From the NCBI RefSeq assembly GCF_003018255.1, contig NZ_CP027440.1: 64,000 nt of DNA. One strand, given 5' to 3'. Positions 16,478 through 62,853 of this stretch are shown in pieces. The translations under genes and the position numbers were made by a program. The DNA is from Escherichia coli (GTDB lineage: Bacteria > Pseudomonadota > Gammaproteobacteria > Enterobacterales > Enterobacteriaceae). The notes beneath the pieces are model-generated. The model saw only the letters and a list, made by a program, of their open reading frames with translations. It was not told the DNA's origin and searched no databases. Position 1 is the stretch's first letter. Each line of letters opens with the position of its first letter.

Positions 16478-17251
16478 TTATTTCAGCGATCCCTTAAGGA
16501 ACTGTTGCAGACGAGGGCTTTGCGGGTTACCAAATAACTGTTCTGGCGCGCCCTCTTCTTCTATTTTCCCCTGATGGAGGAAAATGACGTGAGTAGAAAC
16601 ATGGCGAGCAAAGCCCATTTCGTGAGTCACTACCACCATGGTTTTCCCCTCTTCTGCCAGTTGCTGCATAATACGTAACACTTCGCCTACCAGTTCAGGA
16701 TCGAGCGCCGAGGTAGGTTCATCAAATAGTAAAACTTCCGGTTCCATTGCCAGCGCCCTTGCGATGGAAACACGCTGTTGCTGACCACCGGACAGGTGCA
16801 CCGGGTATTTCCCCTGCGCACGTTCGTCTATCCCGACTTTTGCCAGATATTTCACCGCCCGCTCGCGCGCTTCCTGCTTGCTCAGGCCCAACACCTGAAT
16901 CGGCGCTTCCATGACGTTTTCCAGCACCGTCATATGGCTCCAGAGATTGAAGTGCTGGAATACCATCGTCAGGCGTGTGCGCAATAAGCGCAGCTGATTT
17001 TTATCGGCGACTTTGAGTTGACCGTCTTTATCGCGCACCAGATTGATCGTCTGGCCATTGACCACGATCGATCCTTCGCTCGGTTTTTCGAGGAAGTTAA
17101 TGCAGCGCAGAAAGGTACTTTTCCCCGATCCCGACGATCCGATGATGCTTATGACATCTCCGGCATTCGCTTGCAGTGAGACCCCTTTCAGCACTTCGTG
17201 TTCGCCGTAGCGTTTGTGCAAATCGATAACGTTTAATTTATTCTCGGACAT
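16478..17251 (-). CDS. hisP: Histidine/lysine/arginine/ornithine ABC transporter ATP-binding protein
   Basis: 257-aa ORF; Walker [10 protein letters not shown]; LSGGQQQR signature. Confidence 0.95.
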
Positions 17252-17258
17252 CGTATTC

Positions 17259-17975
17259 TCAGTGCGTTGAAGAAGGTTTCACATGCTGCAACCAGCGTTT
17301 TTCCGCTCTGCGAAAGAGGCTGATCAGGACATAAGAGATGATTAAATAGAGCACCGCGGCAATGCCGAAGGCGGTAAAAGGTTGATACGTGGCGGCGTTA
17401 ATATCGCGGGCAATTTTCAGCAGATCCGGCACCGTGGCCGTAAACGCCAGCGCAGTAGAGTGCAGCATCAGGATCACTTCGTTGCTGTATGCCGGTAACG
17501 CAATACGCAGCGCAGAAGGCAAAATAATGCAGCGATACATTTTAAAGGTCGAGAAGCCATAGGCTCTGGCGGCTTCAATTTCCCCATGCGGCACTGAACG
17601 GATTGCCCCGGCAAAAATCTCGGTAGTGTAAGCGCAGGTGTTAAGCGTCAGCGCCAGCACGGTACAGTTCAGACCACTGCGAAAAAAGGCGTTAAGGAAC
17701 TCGGTTCCCTTAACAATCTCCAGCGTGTACATGCCGGAATAAAACACCAGCAACTGAACATACAGCGGCGTACCGCGAAAAATATAGGTAAATAACCAGA
17801 TTGGAAACTGGATGTATTTATTACTTGAGACGCGACCAATCGCCAGAAACAGCGCCAGAACTCCGCCTATCACTACCGACAAAATCAGCAGCCACAGGGT
17901 GATTGCCACGCCAGTAAAGCGATAACCGTCAGTCCACAGCAGTGGTTTCCAGTATTCATGTAAGATTTCGATCAC
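17259..17975 (-). CDS. hisM: Histidine ABC transporter permease
   Basis: 238-aa ORF; 4-bp overlap with hisQ. Confidence 0.93.
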
Positions 17976-18658
17976 AGGTCAGACCTCTTCACACCCACGG
18001 AGTAGCGGCGCTCAAGGAACAGCAGCACACCATTGGAAACAGTGGTAAAAACCAGGTAAATCACGCCACAGACGATGGCGAAATAGAACGGTTCCCAGGT
18101 ACTTTTGCCTGCCAGCTGAGTGGCTTTGACCACATCTTCCAGGCCGAGTAACGAAACGAGTGCGGTAGATTTGAGGATCACCTGCCAGTTGTTGCCAATG
18201 CCTGGCAGGGCGTAACGCATCATCGCCGGAAACATGATCCGCCGAAACACTTGCCCACGAGTAAAACCGAACGCCGTCGCCGCCTCTATATGTCCTTTCG
18301 GCACTGCCATAAAAGCACCACGGAACGTTTCGGTAAAATAAGCACCGTAGATAAAACCGAGAGTGATAATACCTGCGACCATCGGATCAATATCAATCTG
18401 CCCGACGCCCATCGCCTCCGTCACCGTGTTTAGCGCAATCTGCAAACCGTAGAAAATCAGCAGCATCAACACCAAGTCCGGCACGCCTCGAATCAGCGTG
18501 GTGTACCCTTCGAAAATCAGCCCCGAAAGCCGATTTTGCGAGAGCTTACCGCCAGCGCCAATTAAACCGATAATTACAGCGAGCACTACAGAGCTGATAG
18601 CCAGCTCCAGCGTGACGAGCGCACCCTGTAAAATAACACCTGAAAACCCATACAACAT
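17972..18658 (-). CDS. hisQ: Histidine ABC transporter permease
   Basis: 228-aa ORF. Confidence 0.93.
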   Translation of the reverse strand: MLYGFSGVILQGALVTLELAISSVVLAVIIGLIGAGGKLSQNRLSGLIFEGYTTLIRGVPDLVLMLLIFYGLQIALNTVTEAMGVGQIDIDPMVAGIITLGFIYGAYFTETFRGAFMAVPKGHIEAATAFGFTRGQVFRRIMFPAMMRYALPGIGNNWQVILKSTALVSLLGLEDVVKATQLAGKSTWEPFYFAIVCGVIYLVFTTVSNGVLLFLERRYSVGVKRSDL

Positions 18659-18699
18659 GCTGCCTGTCCTGTCGTGTGTGGTGAATTACCGCCTCTTGT

Positions 18700-18723
18700 C
18701 TCCCTCCGGTTACCCGAAGGGAG
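18700..18723 (-). other. Intercistronic stem-loop between hisJ and hisQ
   Basis: imperfect hairpin ctccctccggttacccgaagggag read in sequence; location matches the classical hisJ-hisQ intergenic REP-type stem-loop. Confidence 0.45.
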
Positions 18724-18747
18724 CGGACCTTCTTTCACCGATGGCGA

Positions 18748-19530
18748 TTAACCACCATAAACATCAAAATCGAAGTACTTTTTCGCTAATTTCTCGTAAG
18801 TACCGTCAGCGCGCATTTCGGCAAAGGCTTTGTTCAGTGCCTCGCGCAGTTCGTTATCTTCTTTACGCAGGCCCATGCCGGTCCCTACGCCAAACAGTTT
18901 TTCATCTTTAACAGACGGACCACCGAATTTGTAATCTTTACCGACGGGTTGTTTGAGGAAACCTTCGCTGGCAGCGACCTCATCCTGGAACGCGGCATCA
19001 ATACGTCCGGCAGTCAGGTCAGAATAAATGTTGTCCTGCCCCTGATAAGAAACGATTTCAATGCCTTTTGGTGCCCAATGTTCGTTACCGAACGTCTCCT
19101 GGGTGGTGCCCTGCAATACGCCTACCCGTTTGCCTTTCAGCGACTCGACTGTCGGCTGAATGTCGGAATTTTTCGCCACCACCAGACGAGAATCGGCAGC
19201 GTACAGTTTGTCGGTGAAGGCAATTTCTTGCTGACGTTTTTCCGTAATGGAAAGCGATGACATGATGGCGTCAATCTTCTTCGCTTTTAAGGACGGGATT
19301 AACGCATCCAGTGGGTTTTCGACAAACGTACATTGCGTATTGATGCGTTTGCACAACTCCTTCGCCAGATCGATATCGAAGCCAACCAGTTCGCCTTGTG
19401 AATTTTTTGATTCAAATGGCGCATAGGTCGGATCGGTACCGATGCGGATGTTTTGCGGAATCGCAGCAAACGCAGCAGTTGCGCTGGAGAAGGCCAGAAC
19501 CAGAGAGAGCGATAGCACCAGTTTTTTCAT
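18748..19530 (-). CDS. hisJ: Histidine-binding periplasmic protein
   Basis: 260-aa ORF with signal peptide; tandem paralog of argT. Confidence 0.95.
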
Positions 19531-19750
19531 AATGTCCTCAACTGACAGTCTTTTTATAGGGAATATTTACAGGTTTGTTACACTTATCGTGCCATAAAAT
19601 TGACCATCAAGGCAAAATATCCCGCCCCGTTAGACGTATTATTTTTCATTAAAAATGCTTAAGTATGCATTTCAATGCACCACGATAGTGCAACAAACCT
19701 GGCGTGCACCATGATGATCATTCCATCAGGTACAGTTTCCCTGCGACGTA

Positions 19751-20533
19751 TCAGTCACCGTAGACATTAAAGTCGAAATACTTTTTCGCCATCTTGTCGT
19801 AGGTACCGTCCTGACGCAGCTCGCCAAGCGCCTTATTAAACGCCGCCGTCAGTTCAGCATCATCTTTACGTAGCCCTACACCGGTACCGTCACCGAAGTA
19901 TTTTTTGTCTTTCACTGATGAGCCAGCAAAAGCGAACTCTTTACCGGCTGGTTGCTTGAGGAATCCTTCACTGGCAGCAACTTCATCTTGTAACGCAGCA
20001 TCCAGACGTCCTGCAGCCAGATCGGAATAAACCAAATCCTGGTTGGCATAGGCCACCACATCCACGCCTTTGCTACGCCAGGTCTCGTTAGCGTATGCTT
20101 CCTGGGTTGATCCCTGCAGCACACCCACATGTTTACCTTTCAGTGAATCCAGCGTTGGCTGAATCGGTGAACCTTTGGCGGCAATCAAACGAGAATCTGC
20201 GGCGTACAACTTGTCGGAGAAAGCAATCTCCTGCTGACGTTTATCGGTAATGGAGAGCGACGAAATAATGGCGTCGATTTTTTTCGCTTTTAGTGAGGGG
20301 ATCAGCGCGTCAAAGTCACTGGCAACCCAGGTACATTTCACCTGCATCCGTTTGCACATCTCGTTACCGAGATCGATATCAAAGCCAACAAAGTCACCTT
20401 TGGCATCTTTCGATGAGAACGGCGCATAGGTGGTATCGGTTCCGATACGTACCGTCTCCGGTAGCGCCGCATAGCTGGAAGCCGCTGCGGAGAGACCGAC
20501 TAACAAAGACAGAGCGAGAATCGACTTCTTCAT
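19751..20533 (-). CDS. argT: Lysine/arginine/ornithine-binding periplasmic protein
   Basis: 260-aa ORF with signal peptide. Confidence 0.95.
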
Positions 20534-20798: not shown

Positions 20799-21368
20799 TT
20801 ATGCGCCCTGCCAGCGGGCAAAGAGATCTTCAGGAAGGGTTATCGCAAACTGGTCAAGAACACGATTAACCGTCTGATTTATCACATCATCAAGGGATTG
20901 TGGGCGATGATAAAACGCCGGAACGGGAGGCATAATCACCGCACCGATTTCTGCCGCCTGAGTCATTAAACGCAGATGGCCTAAGTGCAGTGGCGTTTCA
21001 CGCACGCAGAGCACCAACGGGCGACGCTCTTTCAGCACCACATCTGCCGCACGGGTCAGTAAGCCATCAGTATAGCTATGGACAATGCCGGACAGGGTTT
21101 TGATTGAACAGGGTAAAATCACCATCCCCAACGTCTGGAAAGAACCGGAAGAAATGCTGGCAGCAATATCGCGCGCATCGTGTGTCACATCAGCTAACGC
21201 CTGCACTTCGCGCAGGGAAAAATCCGTTTCGAGGGATAAGGTCTGGCGCGCTGCCTGGCTCATTACCAGATGCGTTTCGATATCTGTGACATCGCGCAGA
21301 ACCTGTAATAAACGCACGCCATAAATCGCGCCGCTGGCACCGCTGATGCCTACAATGAGTCGTTTCAT
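20799..21368 (-). CDS. ubiX: Flavin prenyltransferase UbiX
   Basis: 189-aa ORF; MKRLIVGISGASGAIYG. Confidence 0.94.
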   Translation of the reverse strand: MKRLIVGISGASGAIYGVRLLQVLRDVTDIETHLVMSQAARQTLSLETDFSLREVQALADVTHDARDIAASISSGSFQTLGMVILPCSIKTLSGIVHSYTDGLLTRAADVVLKERRPLVLCVRETPLHLGHLRLMTQAAEIGAVIMPPVPAFYHRPQSLDDVINQTVNRVLDQFAITLPEDLFARWQGA

Positions 21369-21462
21369 AAATAGTTGCCCTGTCAGACTTGCAGGCAGAC
21401 TTTGCAGGATTTCGACGGGAGTTGCAAGTCAGGGTGCCAGACCGGCACCCTGAGCGAAGGCA

Positions 21463-22981
21463 TCATCCTTCGTTATGCATTTCGAGATTTTCCACTTCGT
21501 TCTGACGTTGCACTGCTTTGGCGTCGTCATTACGTAAAGTATCGAGGAAATCGAGGTAGCCCTGATCAACGTCTTTGGTGACGTAGACGCCGTTGAATAC
21601 CGAGCATTCAAACTGCTGGATATCCGGGTTTTCAGCGCGAACGGCTTCGATCAGATCGTTCAGATCCTGGAAAATCAACCCGTCAGCACCGATGATCTGG
21701 CGAATTTCATCTACTTCGCGACCGTGAGCGATCAGTTCCGTGGCGCTCGGCATATCGATACCGTAAACGTTCGGGAAGCGAATTTCCGGTGCCGCAGAAG
21801 CGAGGTACACTTTCTTCGCTCCGGCTTCGCGTGCCATCTCGATAATCTGCTCAGAAGTGGTGCCACGGACAATGGAGTCGTCGACCAGCAAGACGTTTTT
21901 ATCGCGGAACTCGGCGCGGTTGGCGTTCAGTTTACGGCGCACGGACTTACGACGCAGCTGCTGGCCCGGCATGATGAAGGTGCGGCCAACATAGCGGTTT
22001 TTAACGAAGCCCTGGCGGTACGGTTTGCCCAGAATACGAGCAATTTCCAGCGCGATATCACACGAGGTTTCCGGAATAGGGATCACCACGTCGATATCCA
22101 GATCTTCCCATTCGCGGGCAATTTTCTCGCCCAGTTTGGTGCCCATATTCACGCGCGCGCTGTAAACGGAAATTTTGTCGATGAACGAGTCCGGGCGGGC
22201 AAAGTATACATACTCAAACAGGCACGGATTGCTGACCGGATTGTCAGCACATTGACGGGTAAACAACTGCCCTTCTTCAGTGATGTAAATCGCTTCGCCC
22301 GGCGCGACGTCACGCAGGAAATCAAAGCCCAGCGTATCGAGCGCAACGCTTTCGGAAGCGACCATATATTCTGTACGGTTCTCGTCAATATCACGTTTTC
22401 CCAGTACCAACGGACGAATACCGTTTGGATCGCGGAAAGCAACCATACCGTGGCCGATGATCATCGCCACACAGGCATACGCGCCGCGGATTAAGCGGTT
22501 TGTAGCAGCGATGGCGGCGAAAATGTTGTCGGCTTCCAGCGGATAGTGGCGGAAGTTGTCCAGTTCGCTGGCAAAGATATTAAGCAGAATTTCCGAGTCG
22601 GAAGTGGTGTTGATGTGGCGGCGTTTTTCTTCAAACAGTTTTTTTACGCAACTCGTGAGCGTTGGTCAGATTGCCGTTGTGGGCAAGCGTAATGCCATAC
22701 GGGGAGTTAACGTAAAACGGCTGCGCTTCAGAGGCGCTGGAGCTGCCAGCCGTAGGGTAACGCACATGACCAATGCCCATATTGCCCTGCAAACGCTGCA
22801 TATGGCGAGCTTCAAATACATCGCTCACCAGCCCGTTCGCTTTACGCAAACGGAAGCAGTTATTGGCATCTATGGTGATGATGCCGGCGGCATCCTGACC
22901 GCGATGCTGAAGCACCGTTAAGGCATCATAAATCGACTGGTTAACCGGCATAACACCGGCGATACCGACAATACCGCACAT
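21463..22981 (-). pseudogene. purF: Amidophosphoribosyltransferase gene purF, disrupted by +1 frameshift in a homopolymer run
   Basis: N-terminal ORF 22631..22981 ends ..[10 protein letters not shown]; the native frame ([19 protein letters not shown]..) resumes one base out of frame and runs to 21463; plus-strand T7 run at 22639-22645. Confidence 0.8.
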
Positions 22982-23017: not shown

Positions 23018-23506
23018 TTACGCTCTGGGCAAGAAACTTGACGAGCTTTGCAGATAATCAAAAAACCATCTGATGATAAAACTGAACTGCGGGATCAGCT
23101 GTGATTTGCTCCAGTCTTCGCTTTTCGACACCCCGGTAAAGGAGTCGAGAAAGAAGAGAATGGCGGCAACAATCAACACACCGCGCAACGCACCGAAACA
23201 GACGCCCAGCACCCGATCGGTGCCTGACAACCCCGTTTTCTCTACCAACTGGCCTATCACGAAGTTCACGATAGCACCAACGATCAGGGTAGCGATAAAC
23301 AGTACCGCGATGGCAATCCCATTTCGAACCAGTTCGTCTTCAAAGCCCGTAAACCAGACTGACAGGTAAGTGTAGTAATGACTGGCAACAAAGAAAGCAC
23401 AACCCCATGTCACCAGCGATAACGCTTCACGAACAAAGCCGCGGATCAGGCTAACCAGAGAGGAAAAAGCAATCACCGCGATTATGGCGTAATCAATCCA
23501 GACCAT
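23018..23506 (-). CDS. cvpA: Colicin V production membrane protein CvpA
   Basis: 162-aa ORF; first gene of cvpA-purF-ubiX. Confidence 0.93.
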   Translation of the reverse strand: MVWIDYAIIAVIAFSSLVSLIRGFVREALSLVTWGCAFFVASHYYTYLSVWFTGFEDELVRNGIAIAVLFIATLIVGAIVNFVIGQLVEKTGLSGTDRVLGVCFGALRGVLIVAAILFFLDSFTGVSKSEDWSKSQLIPQFSFIIRWFFDYLQSSSSFLPRA

Positions 23507-27554: not shown

Positions 27555-28367
27555 TTAGTCCGCCAGAAATAGCGGGCCCATTGGCGGTTTTGGAAGATCA
27601 TACCGGTCAGGGTAATCCACCGCGACCAGATACAGCCCTTCCGCTTTTGCCGTTGCTGCCGCCAGCGTTCTGTCCTTTGCCGCCAGCAACTCTGCTATCC
27701 AGCTCTCCGGCTGGTTGTGGGCACCGACTTCCATCAGGCTGCCGACAATATTCCTGACCATATGATGTACAAAGGCATTCGCTTTGATATCTACCACCAC
27801 ATAAGGACCGTGACGCGTGACATTAATATGCATAACGTTGCGCCACGGGGTTCGGGACTGGCACTGCACCGCACGGAACGAGGTGAAATCATTCTCGCCC
27901 AGCAAGCATTGCGCAGCCCGATGCATCCGTTCAGCGTCCAGCGGTTCGTAAAAATGGGTTACCCCTTTACTCAGTACCGCCGGGCGCAGCCGATGATTGT
28001 AGATGATGTAGCGATAACGGCGAGCCGTGGCGCTAAATCGGGCATGAAAATCATCAGGTACAGCTTTAACCCAACGCACGGCGATGTCACCAGGTAAATT
28101 CGCATTTACGCCCAACGTCCACGCAGCGTCTTTGCGCTGTGCGGTCGTTTCGAAATGCACAACCTGCCCGGTACCGTGTACACCGGCGTCAGTACGCCCG
28201 GCGCAGAAGACGGTGATGGGTTCGTTCGCCACCTGGGAGAGCGCCTTTTCCAGCTTCTCCTGCACACTGCGGACTTCATTCTGCCGTTGCCAGCCGTAAT
28301 ACCTACTGCCGTCGTACTCAATGCCCAGCGCAATTTTATAAACTGGCGGTTGTTGCTGGTCGGACAT
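27555..28367 (-). CDS. truA: tRNA pseudouridine(38-40) synthase
   Basis: 270-aa ORF; 1-nt overlap with usg. Confidence 0.94.
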
Positions 28368-29380
28368 TAGTACAGATACTCCTGCACCAGTTTCTCGGCG
28401 ATTTTTACTGCCATCAGCGCGCCGCCAAAGCGAACGTTATCGGCCACCGACCAGAACTGAACTTGCTCCGGCATACCGTAGTCATTACGTACGCAGCCAA
28501 CAGAAAGATGCGGCGTACCAGAAGCATCTCCTACCTGAGTCGGGAATTCGTTCTCTTCAGAGAGCACAATATCTTCGCCCTGAGCAAACGCATCACGCGC
28601 TTCTTCTGCCGCCAGCGGACGCAGTGCTTCAAAGTTGACCATCTGGGCATGACCGTAGAATACCGGTGCCTGGACGACGCTTGCCGAAATCATCAGCCCT
28701 TCGTCCTGCAGGATTTTGCGTACTTCGTCAACGATACGACGTTCTTCACGCACGCTACCTTCGCTATCCGGCAGTAACGGCAGCATGTTGAACGCCAGCT
28801 GACGCCCGAAGAAATCTTCTTCGTCAATCGGAATGCCATTGAGTAATTTAGCACTCTGCCCCGCTAACGCATCGACCGCTTTTTTGCCCTGGGCGGAGGC
28901 TGAAATCAGGCTGGTAACGCTGATACGTGATAAACCGCCCTGATCAATTAGCGGTTTCAGTGCCGCCAGCAGCTGGCTGGTCAGACTGTCCGGTACGGCG
29001 ATGACATTCCGGTTGCGGTAATCGGTCAGTACAAACGGGTTTACTTCCGGCACTACCAGCGGTACGTCAGGTTCGAGAGCAAACAATCCGCTGCTGTCGA
29101 TCACCAGACAACCTGAGTTGGTCGCTTCTTCAACCCAGGCAGCGGTAGCTTCTTTGCCTGCGACAAAAAATGCCAGCTGCGCCTGCGTCCAGTCAAATTC
29201 AGCGGCATCCTGCACGGTGATTGTCTTACCACCAAAGCGCAGTTGTTCGCCTGCGCTTTCGTTACGTGCCAGTGCATAAATTTCCCCAACCGGGAACTGA
29301 CGTTCAGCCAGCGTTTCAAGCAGGGCTTCGCCCACAGCGCCAGTTGCGCCCAGGACGGCAATGTTCCAGCCTTCAGACAT
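28367..29380 (-). CDS. usg: USG-1 (aspartate-semialdehyde dehydrogenase homolog)
   Basis: 337-aa ORF; N-terminal Rossmann motif [10 protein letters not shown]. Confidence 0.9.
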
Positions 29381-39052: not shown

Positions 39053-40138
39053 TTACCAGCGTGGAATATCAGTCTTCACATCAGCATTTTGCGCCCGTTG
39101 CCGTAACAGGTGATCCATTAAAACGATCGCCAGCATCGCTTCAGCGATCGGCACCGCGCGGATCCCAACACACGGATCGTGACGGCCTTTGGTGATCATC
39201 TCAACTTCTTCGCCAAAGCGGTTAATCGTGCGCCCCGGCACAGTAATGCTTGAGGTCGGTTTCAGCGCCATATGGGCAATGATTTGCTGCCCGCTGCTGA
39301 TACCACCAAGAATGCCGCCCGCATGGTTGCTCTGGAAACCGTCTTTGGTGATTTCGTCACGGTTCTGGCTGCCACGCAGCGCTACCACGTCAAAACCATC
39401 ACCAATTTCCACACCTTTCACCGCGTTAATGCTCATTAGCGCATGGGCGATGTCGGCATCCAGGCGGTCAAAAACCGGCTCGCCAAGTCCGGCGGGTACG
39501 CCACTGGCAACGACGGTGACTTTCGCGCCGATGGAGTCACCCTCTTTTTTCAGCGCGCGCATCAGTTCATCTAACGCGTCGATTTTGTCCGGGTCCGGGC
39601 AGAAAAACGGATTTTGCTCGACCTGCGACCAGTCTTTGATTTCCAGCGGAATATCACCCATCTGGGTCAGGCAGCCGCGAATCTCAATGCCAAATTTCTC
39701 GGCGAGATATTTTTTGGCAATCGCCCCTGCTGCAACGCGCATAGCGGTTTCGCGGGCGGAAGAACGTCCACCGCCGCGATAATCGCGCAGGCCGTATTTT
39801 TGTTCATAGGTGTAATCGGCATGACCTGGACGGAAAACGTCCTTAATCGCACTATAATCCTGAGAACGCTGGTCGGTATTTTCGATCAACAATCCGATGC
39901 TGGTGCCAGTAGTAACACCTTCAAAAACACCGGAGAGAATTTTGACCTGATCCGGCTCGCGGCGCTGGGTGGTATAGCGCGATGTCCCAGGTCGACGACG
40001 ATCAAGGTCATGTTGCAAGTCCGCTTCCGTCAGCGGAATGCCTGGCGGAACACCATCGACGATGCAGCCGAGCGCCAGCCCGTGCGATTCGCCGAAGGTG
40101 GTTACGCGAAAGAGTTGTCCAATTGTGTTTCCAGCCAT
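39053..40138 (-). CDS. aroC: Chorismate synthase
   Basis: 361 aa from [20 protein letters not shown]. Confidence 0.95.
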
Positions 40139-48353: not shown

Positions 48354-48960
48354 TATTTGTCCTTAAATCATAAATAATTAGAATATAAGCCAACTGAAAT
48401 ATTGACGCAGAGCTTCTTCAATTTTTACAGCGACTTTTAACCAGCCAATGAACAGATTTTCAGCTCCTGAAAAAACAGGTTCCTTGATATAATATTCTTT
48501 GGCGTGCCGAACATATTGATATTTTAATATGACTGACGCAATTTAGATTTTCTAACATTCAAAGTTAGAAATGCTTAATTAATAGGCAGGAATAATAATT
48601 ACTGAAATTTTTCATCTCAATCATGAAGAATAAGTTCAAAAAAACGGCAAATGCAAAAACCCAGTGAATAAATTAAAGTCAAAAACAATCACATGGCAAT
48701 GACTATCTTGTGATATTAATTTCGCAACGATATAATATTAAAACACTATAATTAATATAAAATCAAGACCCAATTATATTTTTCACTTTAGTCATTATTT
48801 ACCTAAAAATGCTTCCAGAAAAATAATTTATGAATAAAAGTAAATTCTCTTTCAATATGTAAATTTTTACAAATAAAAGCGTCATGCCGTATAAAATAAA
48901 GACCATTCGATCACAAGCGGATCATTGTTAGTACAATAAGATTGAATAAATTCAACATTG
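48354..48960 (-). promoter_or_regulatory. AT-rich upstream regulatory region of the yfc fimbrial operon
   Basis: ~600 bp strongly AT-rich non-coding sequence 5' of yfcV; typical of nucleoid-protein-silenced fimbrial promoters. Confidence 0.5.
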
Positions 48961-48961
48961 C

Positions 48962-49000
48962 CAGAAAAAATAAAGGCCCGATAGCTTACGCCAGCGGGCC
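48962..49000 (-). terminator. Rho-independent terminator downstream of sixA
   Basis: hairpin ggcccg..cgggcc followed on minus strand by tttattttttc. Confidence 0.7.
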
Positions 49001-49013
49001 TTGTGCATGCGTA

Positions 49014-49499
49014 TTAAATCGCCTTTGCCATCTTCAAATTACATGGGCTCATCTGCCAGTTAAATGTGCCGTTTCCGCTTTCATCAAGCGTTACGCTGGC
49101 AATGGCCGAGGTGGTAAACATAGGCGGCGTTTCGCCCGGACATAACTCAGCAACCAGATACCCGACTAAGGGTAAGTGGGAGATCACCAGTACCGAAGCA
49201 ACACCTTCATTGGTCAACGCCTGCAAATAGGCACTGACCAGACCAACATCGCCGCAGGGCGTTAACTCCGGCAGAACTTCTGCACTGGAAGGCAGGTTCA
49301 GACAATCCCCTACTTCTTCAAGTGTTTGCTCGGCTCGCAGGAACGGGCTCACCAGAACGCGTTCGATTTCCACTTTTTGACCTTTCAGCCAGTTCGCCAT
49401 CAGGCGAGATTCGTCACAACCGTTAGTGGTCAGAGGACGAACCGAATCACTGGCGGCATCGAGGGCTGCGTCGCCGTGACGCATGATAAAAACTTGCAT
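49014..49499 (-). CDS. sixA: Phosphohistidine phosphatase SixA
   Basis: 161-aa ORF; MQVFIMRHGDA (RHG motif). Confidence 0.94.
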   Translation of the reverse strand: MQVFIMRHGDAALDAASDSVRPLTTNGCDESRLMANWLKGQKVEIERVLVSPFLRAEQTLEEVGDCLNLPSSAEVLPELTPCGDVGLVSAYLQALTNEGVASVLVISHLPLVGYLVAELCPGETPPMFTTSAIASVTLDESGNGTFNWQMSPCNLKMAKAI

Positions 49500-49701
49500 A
49501 TTGCACCGCTTTTGTTAACCAGATTCGCCCGTTTTCTTTCATCTGAAACCAGAGAAAGAAAACGGTGGCCGGCATTGTGCCTTATCCATTCACCGAATGA
49601 AACGCTGTTTTTTACCTCAATGGCGTAAGTATAGTCAATATGCGTTTACATTTTGAGCAACACTCCGCCATTCAGCGCGGATTCATATAGCTTTGACCTT
49701 C

Positions 49702-51846
49702 TTATTGCAGGTCAGTTGCAGTTGTTTTCCAAAAACTTTCCCCACGCTTGCTCATCTCGACTAAACGCTCGCAAGGGGTAAAACGGGAACCATACTGCGT
49801 GGCCAGTCGTTGCATTATTGCAACCACTTCACCCGCACCGAGAGAATCGATGTAGCGGAACGGACCACCGAGAAATGGCGGAAAACCAATGCCAAATACC
49901 GCGCCAATATCTCCGTCACGCACGCTACGGATAACCTGCTCGTCCAGACAACGTACTGCTTCATTCAGCATCAACATCACACACCGTTCAGCTACCTGCG
50001 GTGCGGAGAGTCGCCCCTGCCCTTGTGTGCCAATGAGCGGGTAAATGGCGGGATCGACCTGTTTTTTGCTTTTACGCCCTTTCTGACCATAAAGATAGAA
50101 ACCCCGGCCATTTTTTCTGCCTTTGCGATCGTCGTTCAAAATTGAAGAAACAACATTTGCAGGCGCGCTAAAACGTTCTCCATAAGCGGCTTCCAGTACA
50201 GGAATAATTTTAGTCCCGGTGTCGATTCCTACCTCATCCAAAAGTTGGATTGGGCCTACCGGAAAACCAAATTTCACCAGCGCGGTATCAATGTGCTCTA
50301 CCCGTTCACCTTCGGTCAACATGCGGATAGCTTCATTAATGTAAGGCGCTAAGATGCGATTGACGTAAAACCCGGCTTTGTCACGCACGACAATTGGCGT
50401 TTTGCCCTGTTTTTTCGCCAGTTTTACTGTGGTGGCGATGGTTTGCGCCGATGTACCGGCATGGGGAATAATTTCTACCAACGGCATTTTTTCCACCGGA
50501 CTGAAGAAATGCAGGCCAATAACTTGCTCAGGTCGCGCGGCGTGAGCGGCGATATCGCCAATCGGTAAAGATGACGTGTTCGAAGCAAAGATGGTATGAG
50601 CGGCGCAATTTTGCTCAACTTCCGCCACCATTTGTTGTTTTAATTCGAGATTTTCAAACACCGCTTCAATAATCAGATCGCGATGGGCAAAGCCGCAATA
50701 GTCCGTCGTTCCGGAGATTAATGCCAGCTGTCTGTCACGTTCGCTGGCTTTGAGATGACGACGGCGAACTTTGCCCTCCAGCTGATCCCAACTGTACTTC
50801 AGCGCATGATTTATGCCCTGCGGGTTGATATCTTTAATTCTGACCGGAAGCCCCGCTTTACAAGCAGTGACATAAGCAATACCGCCGCCCATCAAGCCAC
50901 CACCTAAAATTCCCACGCTGTTTAATGGCGCAGGCGGCGCATCACTGCCAGGATCTTTCTTCACGTCCGTACTGGCAAAAAAGATACTACGCAGCGCCTG
51001 CGATTGCGGCGTCATCACCAGTTCGCCAAAAGCACGGGCTTCAGCGTCATAGCCGCCACTGGTGCCCTGCGCTAATCCCGTTTCGACAACCTCCAGGATG
51101 CGTTCTGTCGCCGGATAGTTACCTTGAGTTTTGTGTTCTGTTTTCTTACCGACCATTTTGAACAGCAGCGCACGACCTAACGGCCCCGCCAGAATACGCT
51201 CGCGTACAGGTAGAGGGCGTGAAGATGGGCGATCCTGCTTTGCCAGCTCAACAGCGGCTTCCAGTAAAATGGATTGCGGAACGACGTCATCCACCAGCCC
51301 CAGCTTTAATGCCTGTTTCGCCCGAAGTTGTTTTCCAGTGAGGATCATCTCCAATGCTGTGCTGACACCTATCAGGCGCGGTAAACGCTGGGTGCCGCCT
51401 GAACCGGGTAATAATCCAAGTTGTACTTCAGGCAAACCGAGCACCGTTTTAGGATCGTCAGTACACATGCGACCGTGGCACGCCAGCGCCAACTCCAGCC
51501 CACCGCCCAGGCAAGCGCCATGAATAGCCGCGATAACCGGAACGGGCAAAGCATGAATCTCCGCCATCAACTGTTGGCCCTGCCGCGCCAGTGCTTCCGC
51601 TTCTTGCGCCGTTTTGCAGTTGGCGATCATGTTGATGTCTGCGCCAGCAATGAAGTTGTCTGGTTTCGCGGAGATAAACACCACGCCGCGCAACTCTTTG
51701 TTTTCACGGAGTTGCTTAATAATGGCGCGCACCTGCGAGGCAAACTCCGCCTTCAGGGTATTCATTTTCTCACCCGGTACGTCGATGGTGATAACAGCAA
51801 TGTTGTCCAGACGGACATTAAGGGTAAACGCTGATGCCATTTCCAT
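49702..51846 (-). CDS. fadJ: Anaerobic fatty-acid oxidation multifunctional enzyme (enoyl-CoA hydratase / 3-hydroxyacyl-CoA dehydrogenase)
   Basis: 714-aa ORF. Confidence 0.95.
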
Positions 51847-53156
51847 TATTCCGCCTCCACAACCATTGCCGCGCCAAGCCCACCCGCAGCACAGGCGGTC
51901 ACTAAACCAAATCCACCGCCGCGACGGCGAAGTTCATGCAATGTCTGGGTAATCATCCGCGCGCCGGTCGCCGCGAAGGGATGCCCGTAAGCAATCGAAC
52001 CGCCAAGCACGTTAAATTTGCTATCGTCCATTTCGCCAGTGGCATGTGCACGCCCCAGTACATCACGAGCAAAACGTTCGCTACCCAGCAACTGAATATT
52101 CGCCAGTGTCTGAGCTGCAAAGGCTTCGTGCATATCGAGCAATGTCAGATCGCTCATTGTCAAACCGGCACGTTCCAGCGCCAGCGGCGTTGACCAGGCC
52201 GGACCGAGCAACATGTCCTGCCAGACATCTATCGCAGTAAATGCGTAACTGCGCAGATACCCCAGCGGTACCAGCCCTAATTCTTTCGCCCGCGATTCGG
52301 TCATCAGGATCACCGCCGCTGCGCCATCGGTCAGCGGCGTACTGTTTGCTGCCGTTACCGTCCCGTGTTTACGATCAAACGCCGGACGCAACTTTGCGTA
52401 ATCAGCAAGCGAGGAATTACCGCGAATATTGTTGTCTTCGGCAAGCGGTTGTTTATAAGGAGGGATAAAGGCAGTCATCACCTCTTCTTTGAGTTTACCG
52501 TCTGACCACGCCTGAGCGGCTCGCTGATGCGAACGGTGCGCTAATGCATCTTGCTGTTCGCGAGTAATACCGTAGGTTTTCGCCATTTGTTCAGCGGTGT
52601 CGCCCATCCGCAAGCCAGTAGAGTATTCCGCCACTGCCGGAGGCACCGGCATTAAGTCGCGCAAACGCAGGCGAGAGAAGAGTTTCAGGCGCTGGCTCAT
52701 GGTTCGAGCTTTGTTGACATCAACCAGCACGCGCGCCAGTTTTTTACTGACGCCAATTGGCAATACGGAAGAGGAATCGGCCCCACCGGCAATCCCCGCG
52801 CGAATAGTTCCCGCCATCAGGCTTTCTGCGACGTTTGCAATCGCCTGGAAACTGGTAGCGCAAGCGCGGCTGACGCTGTAAGCATCGGTATGCACATTCA
52901 TTCCGGTACCGAGAACAATTTCACGCGCAATGTTGGGGGCTTCAGGCATTTGTACGACCTGACCAAAAACCAGTTGTTCAATCACTTCGGCGGGGATCTC
53001 GCTGCGTGCCAGCAGTTCGCCTACCACCATCTTCCCCAAATCAACAGCAGGAATGCCATGAAAAGCCGTCGCCTGGCGGGCAAAAGGCGTACGTAAACCG
53101 CTAACAATGGCGATACGATCGCCCTGGCGGGTAACCAGCGGTAAAACCTGACCCAT
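51846..53156 (-). CDS. fadI: 3-ketoacyl-CoA thiolase (anaerobic)
   Basis: 436-aa ORF; stop overlaps fadJ start. Confidence 0.95.
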
Positions 53157-53183
53157 AACACTCCCCTGTAAAATAATAAATAA

Positions 53184-53200
53184 AGTGGTCTGACCTGATC
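53184..53200. promoter_or_regulatory. Putative FadR operator in fadIJ promoter
   Basis: agtggtctgacctgatc resembles FadR consensus (..TGGTCnGACcTGtt); ~30-45 bp upstream of fadI start. Confidence 0.55.
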
Positions 53201-53336
53201 ATAGTCTTAACCATTTTTTTACATTTAGCCAAGTGGAGAAAAGGGAAAGTGGGAGCTATGACACAGAGAGAAAAGTAGAAGAGAAAAGAAAACGCCCCTG
53301 CCAGCAACTGACAGGGGCGTATGTACCCGAGAGGAA

Positions 53337-53621
53337 TTAACGCAGACCCAGCTGGAAGATCAGCATTTCAGCTTCGCAGGCAAAAGTGAAATCGATATCC
53401 AGGCGCACACCGTCAGACTCTTCAGTGAAAGTCGGGGTGATTTTGCACGGTTCGGATTCCACGCTACGGGCTTTTTCAGTCAGCGCCGCCAGCGTTTGTT
53501 CTGCTTCTGCGCGGTTTGCAAACACACGGCTGTAAGACGCGGTGCAGTCGGAGTTGTCCATAATGGTGCCAACATCCATACAGCAGCAAACCGGGGTTTC
53601 ATCAGCACTACATTTACTCAT
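53337..53621 (-). CDS. yfcZ: Small protein YfcZ (UPF0381)
   Basis: 94 aa from MSKCSADETPVCCC; ORF track starts at an upstream ATG. Confidence 0.85.
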   Translation of the reverse strand: MSKCSADETPVCCCMDVGTIMDNSDCTASYSRVFANRAEAEQTLAALTEKARSVESEPCKITPTFTEESDGVRLDIDFTFACEAEMLIFQLGLR

Positions 53622-53866
53622 CGTTGATTTCCTCTGTATGTGCACCCAAGGTGCCAGATAAACGTTGTGGATATTTTACGCTTCCGGAAAGTGCTGCTCC
53701 AGTTGTTAATTCTGCAAAATCGGATAAGTGACCGAAATCACACTTAAAAATGATCTAAAACAAAATTCACCCGAATCCATGAGTGCGCCACCTCCCAATT
53801 TTGCCAGCTGGATCGCGTTTCTTAGATCATATCTGAAAAAAGATAGAAACATACTTGCAACATTCC

Positions 53867-53907
53867 AGCTGGTCCGACCTATACTCTCGCCACTGGTCTG
53901 ATTTCTA
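53867..53907. promoter_or_regulatory. Two FadR operators in fadL promoter
   Basis: agctggtccgacctata and cactggtctgatttcta, ~85-125 bp upstream of fadL start. Confidence 0.7.
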
Positions 53908-53992
53908 AGATGTACCTCAGACCCTACACTTCGCGCTCCTGTTACAGCACGTAACATAGTTTGTATAAAAATAAATCATTGAGGTTATGGTC

Positions 53993-55333
53993 ATGAGCCA
54001 GAAAACCCTGTTTACAAAGTCTGCTCTCGCAGTCGCAGTGGCACTTATCTCCACCCAGGCCTGGTCGGCAGGCTTTCAGTTAAACGAATTTTCTTCCTCT
54101 GGCCTGGGCCGGGCTTATTCAGGGGAAGGTGCAATTGCCGATGATGCAGGTAACGTTAGCCGTAACCCCGCATTGATTACCATGTTTGACCGCCCGACAT
54201 TTTCTGCGGGTGCGGTTTATATTGATCCGGATGTAAATATCAGCGGAACGTCTCCGTCTGGTCGTAGCCTGAAAGCCGATAACATCGCGCCTACGGCATG
54301 GGTTCCGAACATGCACTTTGTTGCACCGATTAACGACCAATTTGGTTGGGGGGCTTCAATTACCTCTAACTATGGTCTGGCGACAGAGTTTAACGATACT
54401 TATGCAGGCGGTTCTGTCGGTGGTACCACCGACCTCGAAACCATGAACCTGAACTTAAGCGGTGCATATCGCTTAAATAATGCATGGAGCTTTGGTCTTG
54501 GTTTCAACGCCGTCTACGCTCGCGCGAAAATTGAACGTTTCGCAGGCGATCTGGGGCAACTGGTGGCTGGTCAGATTAGGCAATCTCCTGCTTGGCTGAC
54601 TCCTCAGGGGCAAGCATTAGCAGCTACCGCCAACGGCATCGACAGTAATACCAAAATCGCTCACCTGAACGGTAACCAGTGGGGCTTTGGCTGGAACGCC
54701 GGTATCCTGTATGAACTGGATAAAAACAACCGCTACGCATTGACCTACCGCTCTGAAGTGAAAATTGACTTCAAGGGTAACTACAGCAGCGATCTTAACC
54801 CGGCTTTTAATAACTACGGTTTGCCAATTCCTACCGCGACAGGTGGCGCAACGCAGTCGGGTTATCTGACGCTGAACCTGCCTGAAATGTGGGAAGTGTC
54901 GGGTTATAACCGTGTTGATCCGCAGTGGGCAATTCACTATAGCCTGGCTTACACCAGCTGGAGTCAGTTCCAGCAGCTGAAAGCGACCTCAACGAGTGGC
55001 GACACGCTGTTCCAGAAACATGAAGGCTTTAAAGATGCTTACCGCATCGCGTTGGGAACCACTTATTACTACGATGATAACTGGACCTTCCGTACCGGTA
55101 TCGCCTTTGATGACAGCCCAGTTCCGGCACAGAATCGTTCTATCTCCATTCCGGACCAGGACCGTTTCTGGCTGAGTGCAGGTACGACTTACGCATTTAA
55201 TAAAGATGCTTCAGTCGATGTTGGTGTTTCTTATATGCACGGTCAGAGCGTGAAAATTAACGAAGGCCCATACCAGTTCGAGTCTGAAGGTAAAGCCTGG
55301 CTGTTCGGTACTAACTTTAACTACGCGTTCTGA
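53993..55333 (+). CDS. fadL: Long-chain fatty acid outer-membrane transporter
   Basis: 446 aa from [18 protein letters not shown]; C-terminal ..NFNYAF. Confidence 0.95.
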
Positions 55334-55351
55334 TAACGCGTTCGCTTAATA

Positions 55352-55386
55352 AGAAAAAAGGTGAGTTTTGCGACTCACCTTTTTTG
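55352..55386. terminator. Bidirectional rho-independent terminator between fadL and mlaA
   Basis: aaaaaa-ggtgagttttgcgactcacc-tttttt. Confidence 0.85.
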
Positions 55387-55394
55387 TTTGTTTC

Positions 55395-56150
55395 TTATTC
55401 AGAATCGATATCTTTTAAATCATCCTGAATCGCTTGCGCGTTCGGATTTTCCTGCGGTTTGAGTTCGCCGCCATTAGCGATGAAATCATGACGCTGGAAG
55501 TACGCTTCGCGCACCATAATATAAGGATCGGACGACTGACGCAGCAGACCATCGGAATCCAACAACTGCGCACGAGTTTCTATCCCTTCAAGCGTCCATT
55601 TACCCACAGACATCGGCCAGGTCAGCCAGGAAAGAACCGGGTAAAGACCATCCGCCATATCACCACCGTCATCACGCAGCGTGAAGCTACCGTAGAACGG
55701 TAACTGAACGTATGGCCCATAACCCACACCATAATGACCAAGCGTACTACCGAAGCGGTGAGGTTCAGTCCGTTGCAGTTTCGGGTTCGCCATCCCTGCA
55801 ACATCAATAAAGCCGCCCATCCCCAAAATGGTGTTCAGGAAAAAGCGGGTAAAGTGGACCATCCCCTGATAAGGGTCGCCCTGCAAGAAGTAGTTAACCA
55901 TCACCGCAGGTTCTTCAAGGTTGCCAGTAAAGTTGCTCAAACCGTTACGCGCCGGTTGCGGAACATAATCACGCCAGGCGACAGCGACCGGTCGAACAAT
56001 ATACGGGTCTAATACATTGAAATTGAAGTTGTACATGGTGCGGTTGAACCCTTCTAGCGGGTCAGAACGCCCTTGCTGATCTGTACCGGAACTCGCACAC
56101 CCCACCAGAAGCGTAGTTCCCAGAGCAAGCGCCGACAGGCGAAGCTTCAT
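55395..56150 (-). CDS. mlaA: Outer-membrane lipoprotein MlaA (VacJ)
   Basis: 251-aa ORF; lipobox LLVGCASS. Confidence 0.93.
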   Translation of the reverse strand: MKLRLSALALGTTLLVGCASSGTDQQGRSDPLEGFNRTMYNFNFNVLDPYIVRPVAVAWRDYVPQPARNGLSNFTGNLEEPAVMVNYFLQGDPYQGMVHFTRFFLNTILGMGGFIDVAGMANPKLQRTEPHRFGSTLGHYGVGYGPYVQLPFYGSFTLRDDGGDMADGLYPVLSWLTWPMSVGKWTLEGIETRAQLLDSDGLLRQSSDPYIMVREAYFQRHDFIANGGELKPQENPNAQAIQDDLKDIDSE

Positions 56151-56443
56151 AAATGTCTCCCTGTTTTTTTATGGCTTATGCAGTTTGCCATCCATGACGG
56201 AACGATACCGTATCCGCCTGTTTAGGTGTGGGCGATTGTAACAGCACGTCAACTGATGTCCAGACGCCCTGATTTGCTGATTTGATCATAGCCTGGTAAT
56301 CGCCGCCCTGTAGGCTACTTGATTCTATAGAAACAGAAAAAGGCAAACGCAGCCTTTTCTACATTTTCAGAGTAACTCCCGCCAGTTGCGAGCAAAAAAG
56401 CCGCTACGCTTTAGCTATACGTGCTAATTCAAGAGAAGAGACC

Positions 56444-57451: not shown

Positions 57452-57526
57452 GTCCTCTTAGTTAAATGGATATAACGAGCCCCTCCTAAGGGCTAATTGC
57501 AGGTTCGATTCCTGCAGGGGACACCA
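57452..57526 (+). tRNA. argW: tRNA-Arg (anticodon CCU)
   Basis: 75-nt sequence read directly, matches argW as recalled; anticodon loop cuCCUaa; ends ..ACACCA. Confidence 0.95.
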
Positions 57527-57967: not shown

Positions 57968-59215
57968 CTATATTGCTGAAGGTACAGGCGTTTCCATAAC
58001 TATTTGCTCGCGTTTTTTACTCAGGAAGAAAATGCCAAATAGCAACATCAGGCAGACAATACCCGAAATTGCGAAGAAAACTGTCTGGTAGCCTGCGTGG
58101 TCAAAGAGTATCCCAGTCGGCGTTGAAAGCAGCACAATCCCAAGCGAACTGGCAATTTGAAAACCAATCAGAAAGATCGTCGACGACAGGCGCTTATCAA
58201 AGTTTGCCACGCTGTATTTGAAGACGGATATGACACAAAGTGGAACCTCAATGGCATGTAACAGCTTCACTAATGAAATAATCCAGGGGTTAACGAACAG
58301 CGCGCAGGAAAGGATACGCAACGCCATAATCACAACACCGATAAGTAATGCATTTTTTGGCCCTACCCGATTCACAAAGAAAGGAATAATCGCCATGCAC
58401 AGCGCTTCGAGTACCACCTGGAATGAGTTGAGATAACCATACAGGCGCGTTCCTACATCGTGTGATTCGAATAAACCTGCATAAAAGACAGGAAAGAGTT
58501 GTTGATCAAAAATGTTATAGAAAGACCACGTCCCCACAATAAATATGACAAAAACCCAGAAGTTTCGATCCTTGAAAACTGCGATAAAATCCTCTTTTTT
58601 TACCCCTCCCGCATCCGCCGCTATGCACTGGTGATCCTTATCTTTAAAACGCATGTTGATCATCATAAATACAGCGCCAAATAGCGAGACCAACCAGAAG
58701 TTGATATGGGGACTGATACTAAAAAATATACCAGCAAAGAACGCGCCAATAGCATAGCCAAAAGATCCCCAGGCGCGCGCTGTTCCATATTCGAAATGAA
58801 AATTTCGCGCCATTTTTTCGGTGAAGCTGTCAAGCAAACCGCATCCCGCCAGATACCCCAGGCCAAAAAAGAGCGCCCCCAGAATTAGACCTACAGAAAA
58901 ATTGCTTTGCAGTAACGGTTCATAAACGTAAATCATAAACGGTCCGGTCAAGACCAGAATGAAACTCATACACCAGATGAGCGGTTTCTTCAGACCGAGT
59001 TTATCCTGAACGATGCCGTAGAACATCATAAATAGAATGCTGGTAAACTGGTTGACCGAATAAAGTGTACCTAATTCCGTCCCTGTTAATCCTAGATGTC
59101 CTTTCAGCCAAATAGCGTATAACGACCACCACAGCGACCAGGAAATAAAAAAGAGAAATGAGTAACTGGATGCAAAACGATAGTACGCATTTCTGAATGG
59201 AATATTCAGTGCCAT
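57968..59215 (-). CDS. cscB: Sucrose:H+ symporter (MFS)
   Basis: 415-aa ORF; MALNIPFRNAYYRFASSYSFLFF.. recognised as CscB. Confidence 0.93.
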   Translation of the reverse strand: MALNIPFRNAYYRFASSYSFLFFISWSLWWSLYAIWLKGHLGLTGTELGTLYSVNQFTSILFMMFYGIVQDKLGLKKPLIWCMSFILVLTGPFMIYVYEPLLQSNFSVGLILGALFFGLGYLAGCGLLDSFTEKMARNFHFEYGTARAWGSFGYAIGAFFAGIFFSISPHINFWLVSLFGAVFMMINMRFKDKDHQCIAADAGGVKKEDFIAVFKDRNFWVFVIFIVGTWSFYNIFDQQLFPVFYAGLFESHDVGTRLYGYLNSFQVVLEALCMAIIPFFVNRVGPKNALLIGVVIMALRILSCALFVNPWIISLVKLLHAIEVPLCVISVFKYSVANFDKRLSSTIFLIGFQIASSLGIVLLSTPTGILFDHAGYQTVFFAISGIVCLMLLFGIFFLSKKREQIVMETPVPSAI

Positions 59216-59286
59216 AATTACCTGCCTGTCGTTAAAAAATTCATGTCCTATTTAGAGATAAGAGCGGCCTCGCCGTTTACTTCTCA

Positions 59287-60201
59287 CTATTCCAGTTCTT
59301 GTCGACATGGCAGCGCTGTCATCGCCCCTTTCGCCGTTACTGCAAGCGCTCCGCAACGTTGAGCGAGATCGATAATTCGTCGCATTTCTCTTTCATCTGT
59401 AGATAATCCCGTAGAGGACAGACCTGTGAGTAACCCGGCAACGAACGCATCTCCCGCCCCCGTGCTATCGACACAATTCACAGACATTCCAGCAAAATGG
59501 TGAACTTGTCCTCGATAACAGACCACCACCCCTTCTGCACCTTTAGTCACCAACAGCATGGCGATCTCATACTCTTTTGCCAGGGCGCATATATCCCAAT
59601 CGTTCTGTGTTTTTCCACTGATAAGTCGCCATTCTTCTTCCGAGAGCTTGACGACATCCGCCAGTTGTAGCGCCTGCCGCAAACACAAGCGGAGCAAATG
59701 CTCGTCTTGCCATAGATCTTCACGAATATTGGGATCGAAGCTGACAAAACCTCCGGCATGCCGGATCGCCGTCATCGCAGTAAATGCGCTGGTACGCGAA
59801 GGCTCGGCAGACAACGCAATTGAACAGAGATGTAACCATTCGCCATGTCGCCAGCAGGGCAAGTCTGTCGTCTCTAAAAAAAGATCGGCACTGGGGCGGA
59901 CCATAAACGTAAATGAACGTTCTCCTTGATCGTTCAGATCGACAAGCACCGTGGATGTCCGGTGCCATTCATCTTGCTTCAGATACGTGATATCGACACC
60001 CTCAGTTAGCAGCGTTCTTTGCATTAACGCACCAAAAGGATCATCACCGACCCGACCTATAAACCCACTTGTTCCGCCTAATCTGGCGATTCCCACCGCA
60101 ACGTTAGCTGGCGCGCCGCCAGGACAAGGTAGTAGCCGCCCGTCTGATTCTGGCAAGAGATCTACGACCGCATCCCCTAAAACCCATACTTTGGCTGACA
60201 T
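59287..60201 (-). CDS. cscK: Fructokinase (PfkB family)
   Basis: 304-aa ORF; ribokinase-family motifs (..DSTGAGDAF..). Confidence 0.9.
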   Translation of the reverse strand: MSAKVWVLGDAVVDLLPESDGRLLPCPGGAPANVAVGIARLGGTSGFIGRVGDDPFGALMQRTLLTEGVDITYLKQDEWHRTSTVLVDLNDQGERSFTFMVRPSADLFLETTDLPCWRHGEWLHLCSIALSAEPSRTSAFTAMTAIRHAGGFVSFDPNIREDLWQDEHLLRLCLRQALQLADVVKLSEEEWRLISGKTQNDWDICALAKEYEIAMLLVTKGAEGVVVCYRGQVHHFAGMSVNCVDSTGAGDAFVAGLLTGLSSTGLSTDEREMRRIIDLAQRCGALAVTAKGAMTALPCRQELE

Positions 60202-60306
60202 TTTTTTCCCTTAAATTCATCTGACTTACGCATAGTGATAAACCTCTTTTTCGCAAAATCGTCATGGATTTACTAAAACATGCATATTCGATCACAAAAC
60301 GTCATA

Positions 60307-60318
60307 GTTAACGTTAAC
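60307..60318. promoter_or_regulatory. Putative CscR operator 1 (perfect 12-bp palindrome)
   Basis: gttaacgttaac in the cscK-cscA divergent intergenic region. Confidence 0.5.
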
Positions 60319-60370
60319 ATTTGTGATATTCATCGCATTTATGAAAGTAAGGGACTTTATTTTTATAAAA

Positions 60371-60382
60371 GTTAACGTTAAC
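60371..60382. promoter_or_regulatory. Putative CscR operator 2 (same 12-bp palindrome)
   Basis: second exact copy of gttaacgttaac, 64 bp from the first, ~35 bp upstream of cscA start. Confidence 0.5.
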
Positions 60383-60416
60383 AATTCACCCAATTTGCTT
60401 AACCAGGATGATAAAA

Positions 60417-61850: not shown

Positions 61851-61857
61851 CATAATA

Positions 61858-62853
61858 TCAGGTGGAACAACGGATCAACAGCGGGCAAGGGATCCGCGTC
61901 ACTCTTCCCCCTTCACGATCTTCAATAATATGCAATGCAGCTTCCCGCCCGATAATGTCATGTGGAAGCTGAATTGTGGTCAGCGGCGGTAAAAACAGAT
62001 GCCCGACGCCAACCAGATTATCAAAGCCCATTACGGCGACATCCTGCGGGATACGTACCCCCTTCGCCAGGAGAACCTGATAAGCGACAAAGGCTGCGCG
62101 ATCGTTACCACATATCAGAACATCAAAATCTGGTTTGCCCGATTTGAAGTGGTCATTGAGTAAACTTGCGAGATCGGTGTAGTGATCATCACCTGTTGCC
62201 ATGTGAAATTGTTTCACCTCAGCCAGATCTCGTCCAGCATCACGCCAGGCCTGCTCAAATCCCTGCCGACGATACCCTGTTGCCAACGCACTTTCCGGTA
62301 GCCAGAAGCATAACGGTTGACGATAGCCCGCCGCGAGCAAATGCTGTGTTGATTCATATTGTGCAGTGTAATCATCAGGGATATAACTGGGTAACGCTGG
62401 GTCATCCGCCACACAGTTCGCCAATACAATATTTTCACCATACAGAGACTCAGGCAGCGAGATATGTCGCAGCCCCATTGTAGTATAGATAATGCCATCC
62501 GGACGGTGGGCAAGCAGCTGACGTGCCGCGCGGGCAGCGTCATCTTCAGAAAAAATATTGATTAAAAAACTATTCCAGCCAAACTCGCTGGCGGTTTGCT
62601 CAATGGCAAGCAGAATATCAACAGAGAAAGGAGTGGTGGCCGTGTCCTGCGCCAGCACGGCGAGAGTCGACGGCTTACGTCCTTGAGCGCGCATCTTACG
62701 GGCGGAAAGATCAGGAACATAATTCAGGGTCTGGATTGCCTGCAATACGCGGTCACGCGTTGCAGGACGCACAGATTCTGCATTATGCATCACCCGGGAG
62801 ACTGTCATCATCGACACTCCCGCCAGGCGTGCGACATCCTTTAATGAAGCCAT
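61858..62853 (-). CDS. cscR: LacI-family sucrose operon repressor
   Basis: 332 aa from MASLKDVARLAGVSMMTVSRV (HTH); ORF track over-extended upstream to 63051. Confidence 0.9.
   Translation of the reverse strand: MASLKDVARLAGVSMMTVSRVMHNAESVRPATRDRVLQAIQTLNYVPDLSARKMRAQGRKPSTLAVLAQDTATTPFSVDILLAIEQTASEFGWNSFLINIFSEDDAARAARQLLAHRPDGIIYTTMGLRHISLPESLYGENIVLANCVADDPALPSYIPDDYTAQYESTQHLLAAGYRQPLCFWLPESALATGYRRQGFEQAWRDAGRDLAEVKQFHMATGDDHYTDLASLLNDHFKSGKPDFDVLICGNDRAAFVAYQVLLAKGVRIPQDVAVMGFDNLVGVGHLFLPPLTTIQLPHDIIGREAALHIIEDREGGRVTRIPCPLLIRCST

Follow-up and report, generated by a model that had tools for sequence, protein, structure and literature searches.

A one-base homopolymer expansion interrupts purF in an Escherichia coli assembly: probable consensus error or recent null allele

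Single-base length changes in homopolymer runs have been described both as errors of assembly and as events in living cells. Among the errors that remain in long-read assemblies, homopolymer indels predominate (PMC12007338), and with PacBio CLR or Nanopore data a one-base change in an A/T run can split a perfectly conserved gene. Real indels likewise favor homonucleotide runs, more often with greater run length (PMC3812077), and slipped-strand null alleles, in which a gain of one base in such a run turns the gene off, are reversible in principle. In Campylobacter jejuni, purF/apt is reported to vary at high frequency (PMC4611032), a case in which purF varies in another enteric bacterium. Frame may also be restored at the ribosome, as in the programmed +1 shift at the shifty stop CUU-UGA of E. 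coli prfB. Programmed frameshifts are conserved among homologues.

The purF gene considered here can be set beside each of these. As written it is a frameshift pseudogene, its TGA lying two codons past an A-run that is one base longer than in intact genes. The extra A is probably a miscall of homopolymer length that went uncorrected when a long-read-based consensus was assembled; if so, purF of the strain would be normal and no phenotype would follow. We infer that the sequence comes from a long-read assembly whose reads would show six A. Core-region searches, one of them with 25 kb of core genes, each matched 5,425 of 5,426 genomes, which suggests that the genome never matched is the source and hence a complete, long-read-based assembly.

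The interrupted purF locus

The whole purF locus lies on the minus strand at 21463..22981 of the window, the full 64,000-base stretch analyzed. It measures 1,519 nt, leaving a remainder of 1 on division by three, and minus the extra A it is the purF of the nearest genome, strain JNE112863 (NZ_AP045072.1). The site of the one-base insertion is an A7 homopolymer at 22639..22645 (minus strand), in Lys codons 113-114, where intact genes carry A6. The coding strand reads CGT AAA AAA ACT GTT TGA, and the plus strand has T7 at the same coordinates, which confirms the seven A given in the preliminary description.

The 5′ fragment as written (22631..22981, minus strand) extends from an ATG at 22981 through 116 codons to a TGA at 22631-22633 and ends ...HELRKKTV, as had been read before; it comprises the first 114 native residues, from the glutaminase domain and including its N-terminal Cys nucleophile, followed by Thr-Val. 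The 3′ part (21463..22638, minus strand) holds native residues 115-505 one base out of the start-codon frame and runs to the normal stop at 21463-21465. Translation in the next frame agrees with the earlier statement that the rest of PurF continues out of frame to 21463, and removal of one A in silico yields a continuous 505-aa protein. Directly upstream on the same minus strand, cvpA (23018..23506) is intact and separated from purF by a 36-nt gap. Downstream, ubiX (20799..21368, minus strand), also intact and a candidate target of polarity, lies 94 nt past the normal purF stop. Were the allele real, the stretch between the early TGA and ubiX (21369..22630, minus strand) would be transcribed yet left untranslated; its computed length of 1,262 nt bears out the approximately 1.2 kb first estimated.

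Family membership was assessed with NCBIfam TIGR01134, the purF equivalog model, whose cutoff of 350 bits refers to the whole-protein score of a single polypeptide. The repaired 505-aa protein scores 542.5 bits, above this cutoff. Both fragments fall below it: the 116-aa product scores 153.4 bits over profile positions 1-113 of 432, and the longest downstream open reading frame with a start of its own (GTG at 22470, 335 aa) scores 340.2 bits over positions 164-431, leaving positions 114-163 in neither. Because the repaired protein passes and both fragments fail, the locus is the purF gene but is not intact as written. The repaired protein also matches E. coli PurF crystal-structure sequences (1ECB, 8W7D) over residues 2-505. 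The Cys immediately after the initiator Met, which is the nucleophile of the Ntn-type glutaminase domain, is present (the reading frame opens MCGIVG...). The glutaminase and phosphoribosyltransferase domains are not joined in one chain, the stop after residue 116 falling inside the glutaminase domain.

The extra A aside, a comparison of 1,750 nt in cvpA and purF finds 0 mismatches to intact NZ_AP045072.1, and thus no secondary decay; the insertion is a discrete event, to which no chance statistic is applicable. A length change limited to a homopolymer, in a gene otherwise undiverged and near-universally intact, has the form of an assembly error. The rival reading takes the extra A to be genuine: strand slippage during replication would very recently have lengthened A6 to A7, inactivating purF and making the strain a purine auxotroph, possibly a leaky one. 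We hold this only tentatively, as a serious but lesser possibility: the known preference of indels for homonucleotide runs speaks for it, and the lack of any further decay in purF speaks against it.

Homopolymer runs and other differences across the window

The window is colinear with NZ_AP045072.1 across all 64,000 bases at 99.56% identity, with 279 substitutions and three single-base indels between them. Among the 62 reference genes mapped, 61 are intact and purF is the sole broken one. There are 80 homopolymer runs of at least 6 bases, A9 and A8 included, and the 79 outside purF all agree with natural haplotypes. Further homopolymer errors were looked for throughout the 64 kb and none was detectable, and in this the sequence differs from the known cases of long-read homopolymer error. 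The intact genes and natural runs argue for a real allele and weigh against a miscall.

The two other indels relative to the nearest genome, at 48965 and 53289, are both intergenic. The A-run downstream of sixA (48965-48970) is one base shorter in the window, at A6, than the A7 of the nearest genome and of ten relatives. This site was considered as a second private homopolymer error and rejected, since 86 nt of the window here recur at 100% identity in 70 RefSeq genomes, inside a SNP-dense recombinant tract, which marks the site as a natural haplotype. At 53289, no gap appears when the window is aligned to relatives with its own FadI allele. The FadI and ArgT alleles of the window are both common, and no locus retrieved through them is identical to it.

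Almost all of the 279 substitutions fall in two tracts, at 16.7-20.3 kb (16700-20300) and 48.6-56 kb (48580-56200), which span hisP-hisM-hisQ-argT and sixA-fadJ-fadI-fadL-mlaA. In fadI, 78 of 1,311 nt differ from the nearest genome, and the whole of 28-44 kb holds one difference. From the sequence, this clustering looks like a recombination mosaic. At the far end of the window, a tRNA-Arg(CCU) gene at 57452-57526 is followed by the sucrose genes cscB, cscK, cscA, and cscR (57968-62853). In five related loci (L015, L017, L018, L023, and L024) the alignment to the window ends exactly at 57526, and what follows is an integrase with phage genes, which are P22-like in four of the loci; this tRNA gene is therefore a variable integration site.

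The seven-A allele in public genomes

The valid search for the allele used an 87-nt query across the A-run against complete RefSeq E. coli genomes, 5,425 of which matched. A shorter, 45-nt megablast query (22620-22664) had given a false "no match," probably through low-complexity masking, and short queries that span a homopolymer are unreliable in a search of this type. The seven-A allele, at 100% identity over the 87 nt, is present in 2 of the 5,425 genomes, and each of the 58 genomes listed after them matches over 86 bases and so has six A. The run also has six A in the GTDB E. coli representative (ATCC 11775), and purF is in frame at 505 aa in all ten relatives retrieved through their ArgT allele. 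The comparison of run length with reference purF that had been suggested at the outset accordingly shows a run exactly one base shorter both in the nearest genome and in the 58 six-A RefSeq genomes listed. Such near-universal integrity of purF across E. coli counts against a real null allele.

The two RefSeq carriers are NZ_CP024228.1 (O25:NM 2014EL-1343-2) and NZ_LR134237.1 (NCTC9022; L014/L036), and in both PGAP annotates purF as "frameshifted." The purF allele is in that sense already known as an annotated pseudogene: these genomes share with the window the same A6-to-A7 change and the same 116-aa stub. They differ from it in carrying other purF haplotypes (20-34 mismatches over 1,750 nt; 97-98% identity over approximately 20 kb), so the events are independent rather than inherited from a common ancestor. 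In NCTC9022, dedD is frameshifted as well (record positions 1654765-1655428), approximately 1 kb upstream of purF. Per 50 kb, NZ_CP024228.1 has one frameshifted gene, purF alone, and NZ_LR134237.1 has two. For 2014EL-1343-2, whose assembly we take to be PacBio-only, a literature search for the sequencing platform found nothing useful. The NCTC3000 genomes rely on PacBio data alone, with HGAP3 for assembly and Quiver for polishing (PMC10272881). An artifact is favored both because one of the other complete-genome carriers is an NCTC assembly of this PacBio-only kind, in which another gene close to purF is frameshifted, and because the density in the window, one indel per 64 kb, is about that of the two RefSeq carriers.

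An exact-sequence look-up found the 116-aa stub on 21 public contigs. Ten carriers were inspected; they are 97-98% identical to the window, so that none is the same strain, and represent at least six purF haplotypes, which implies independent events. Half of the ten are visibly error-ridden long-read assemblies: in L005, L007, L008, and L009 genes are broken all along the locus, and in L004 several are. In L004, L007, and L009 the next A5 run (GAAGAAAAACG), 11 nt downstream and equivalent to approximately 22620-22628 of the window, carries one surplus A as well, a sign of systematic overcalling of A-runs. The occurrence of the same allele in noisy assemblies, together with overcalling of the adjacent run in three of them, is a further likeness to known long-read homopolymer errors.

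The remaining evidence from these carriers is of a different kind. Three short-contig assemblies with clean neighborhoods (L010, L011, and L012) carry the same allele on three different haplotypes; they argue for a real allele and against an artifact, and they make it probable that A6-to-A7 changes genuinely arise, at low frequency. The idea that L003, a complete genome, and L012, a Logan contig, represent one clone sequenced on two platforms was rejected on the strength of 5 dispersed SNPs in 11 kb. They are therefore independent strains, a point that also sits on the side of a real allele.

Recurrence was calibrated against simulated +1 alleles at other A6/T6 runs in conserved genes of the window, the truncated products being looked up in the same way. 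The aroC A6 control (gene 39053-40138) is found on 20 contigs, 1 of them longer than 1 Mb; the usg A6 control (gene 28367-29380) on 11, none longer than 1 Mb; the usg T6 control, in the same gene, on 21, with 2 longer than 1 Mb; and the hisM T6 control (gene 17259-17975) on 4, none longer than 1 Mb. At the purF run itself, the −1 allele (A5) occurs on 6 contigs and the +1 allele (A7) on 21, 7 of them longer than 1 Mb. Since the controls range from 4 to 21, the 21 occurrences at purF represent background for such runs. For the same reason, a special hotspot at purF was rejected, as was selection for its loss, and recurrence no higher than at control runs such as aroC gives a real allele no help. 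What sets the +1 carriers apart is their enrichment on megabase contigs (7/21 versus 1/20, 0/11, 2/21, and 0/4), a post hoc comparison of small numbers that suggests a context-specific long-read overcall at the purF run; over-representation in long-read assemblies likewise counts against a real allele. More broadly, core E. coli genes show up in public data with homopolymer frameshift alleles at a low but steady level.

Taken together, the evidence leans somewhat toward an artifact over a genuinely purF-null strain. The preliminary description was right about the anatomy and right to name a sequencing or assembly error as the main alternative; its preference for the purF-null reading is not supported in view of the rarity of the allele, the absence of secondary decay, the noisy long-read carriers, and a recurrence equal to that of the controls.

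Possible decoding, switching, and consequences for the cell

If the extra A were real, translation would end after 116 aa, and because the break falls inside the glutaminase domain neither fragment could make phosphoribosylamine. There is no well-placed restart in the PurF frame before codon 171, which together with the position of the stop would make the allele null or nearly so. Salmonella without PurF requires exogenous purine, and thiamine synthesis uses the same intermediate (PMC3485032); a real allele fits that precedent, and the strain would be expected to require purines and, conditionally, thiamine, since the two pathways share the PurF step.

Complete loss is less certain. A +1 slip of tRNA-Lys on AAA-AAA-A would re-pair perfectly and give the native 505-aa sequence, and a +1 slip of tRNA-Val at GUU-UGA would give 505 aa with Leu115-Phe116 replaced by Thr-Val; that both ribosomal routes lead to a 505-aa product is compatible with a real, leaky allele. 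Frameshifts in runs of 3-8 nt can be bypassed in part (PMC3812077). Rescue at the RNA level would require a one-base deletion, which is disfavored in E. coli, where transcriptional slippage at A/T runs produces mostly insertions and homopolymer runs account for the start of <1% of transcription deletions (PMC5574713). That tells against rescue of a real allele by this route, and any leak would be small and mainly ribosome dependent. The purine auxotrophy first predicted is accordingly retained in softened form, as auxotrophy or a leaky bradytrophy, given that a +1 slip at either position restores the frame. Under selection, the A7 allele should revert readily to A6.

Two features downstream are what a real allele with effects on ubiX might show. 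The first approximately 160 nt after the premature stop are C-rich and G-poor (26-29 C versus 12-15 G per 80 nt), and the purF-ubiX gap contains no consensus promoter; counts from promoter and terminator scans around purF and ubiX are at chance level. Judged from base composition and the lack of a consensus promoter, putative polarity on ubiX through Rho-dependent termination in the 1.26 kb of untranslated RNA is plausible.

The same slippery positions raise the question of design. That the seven-A arrangement is a functional device, either a programmed +1 frameshift regulating PurF output or a contingency tract reversibly switching off purine synthesis in subpopulations, is barely credible. 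A7 followed two codons on by GUU-UGA does offer two positions at which slippage restores the frame, the second of the same form as the prfB shifty stop. Unlike that of prfB, the purF arrangement is not conserved, being found in just 2 of 5,425 complete E. coli genomes, and reading of the sequence upstream of the site reveals no Shine-Dalgarno-like stimulator. The presence of the allele on several haplotypes and the variation of purF in C. jejuni lend the contingency version some appeal; against it, recurrence equals that of the control runs (21 contigs versus 4-21), and the sequence carries no sign of on/off switching within a population. The purF tract of 6-7 nt is, moreover, short for a contingency locus. 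With neither conservation nor excess recurrence, a functional device is largely refuted, and bypass at GUU-UGA is at best adventitious and low-level. A related proposal treats the A6 tract as a mutational switch, in which recurrent real A6-to-A7 changes would generate slow-growing, purine-auxotrophic bet-hedgers that are sustained by a trickle of PurF from +1 slippage and revert easily, a parallel to the purF/apt variation of C. jejuni; this too is very unlikely.

Neither of the two main outcomes raises a new biological question, each being an ordinary event of a known kind. If the extra A is an artifact, the lesson is one of quality control, in that one unpolished homopolymer can yield a false call of "auxotrophy." If it is real, the isolate would lack the start of de novo purine synthesis and would rely on salvaged purines and, conditionally, on thiamine, which would affect growth in purine-poor niches, metabolic modeling, and strain handling, with easy reversion to the intact gene.
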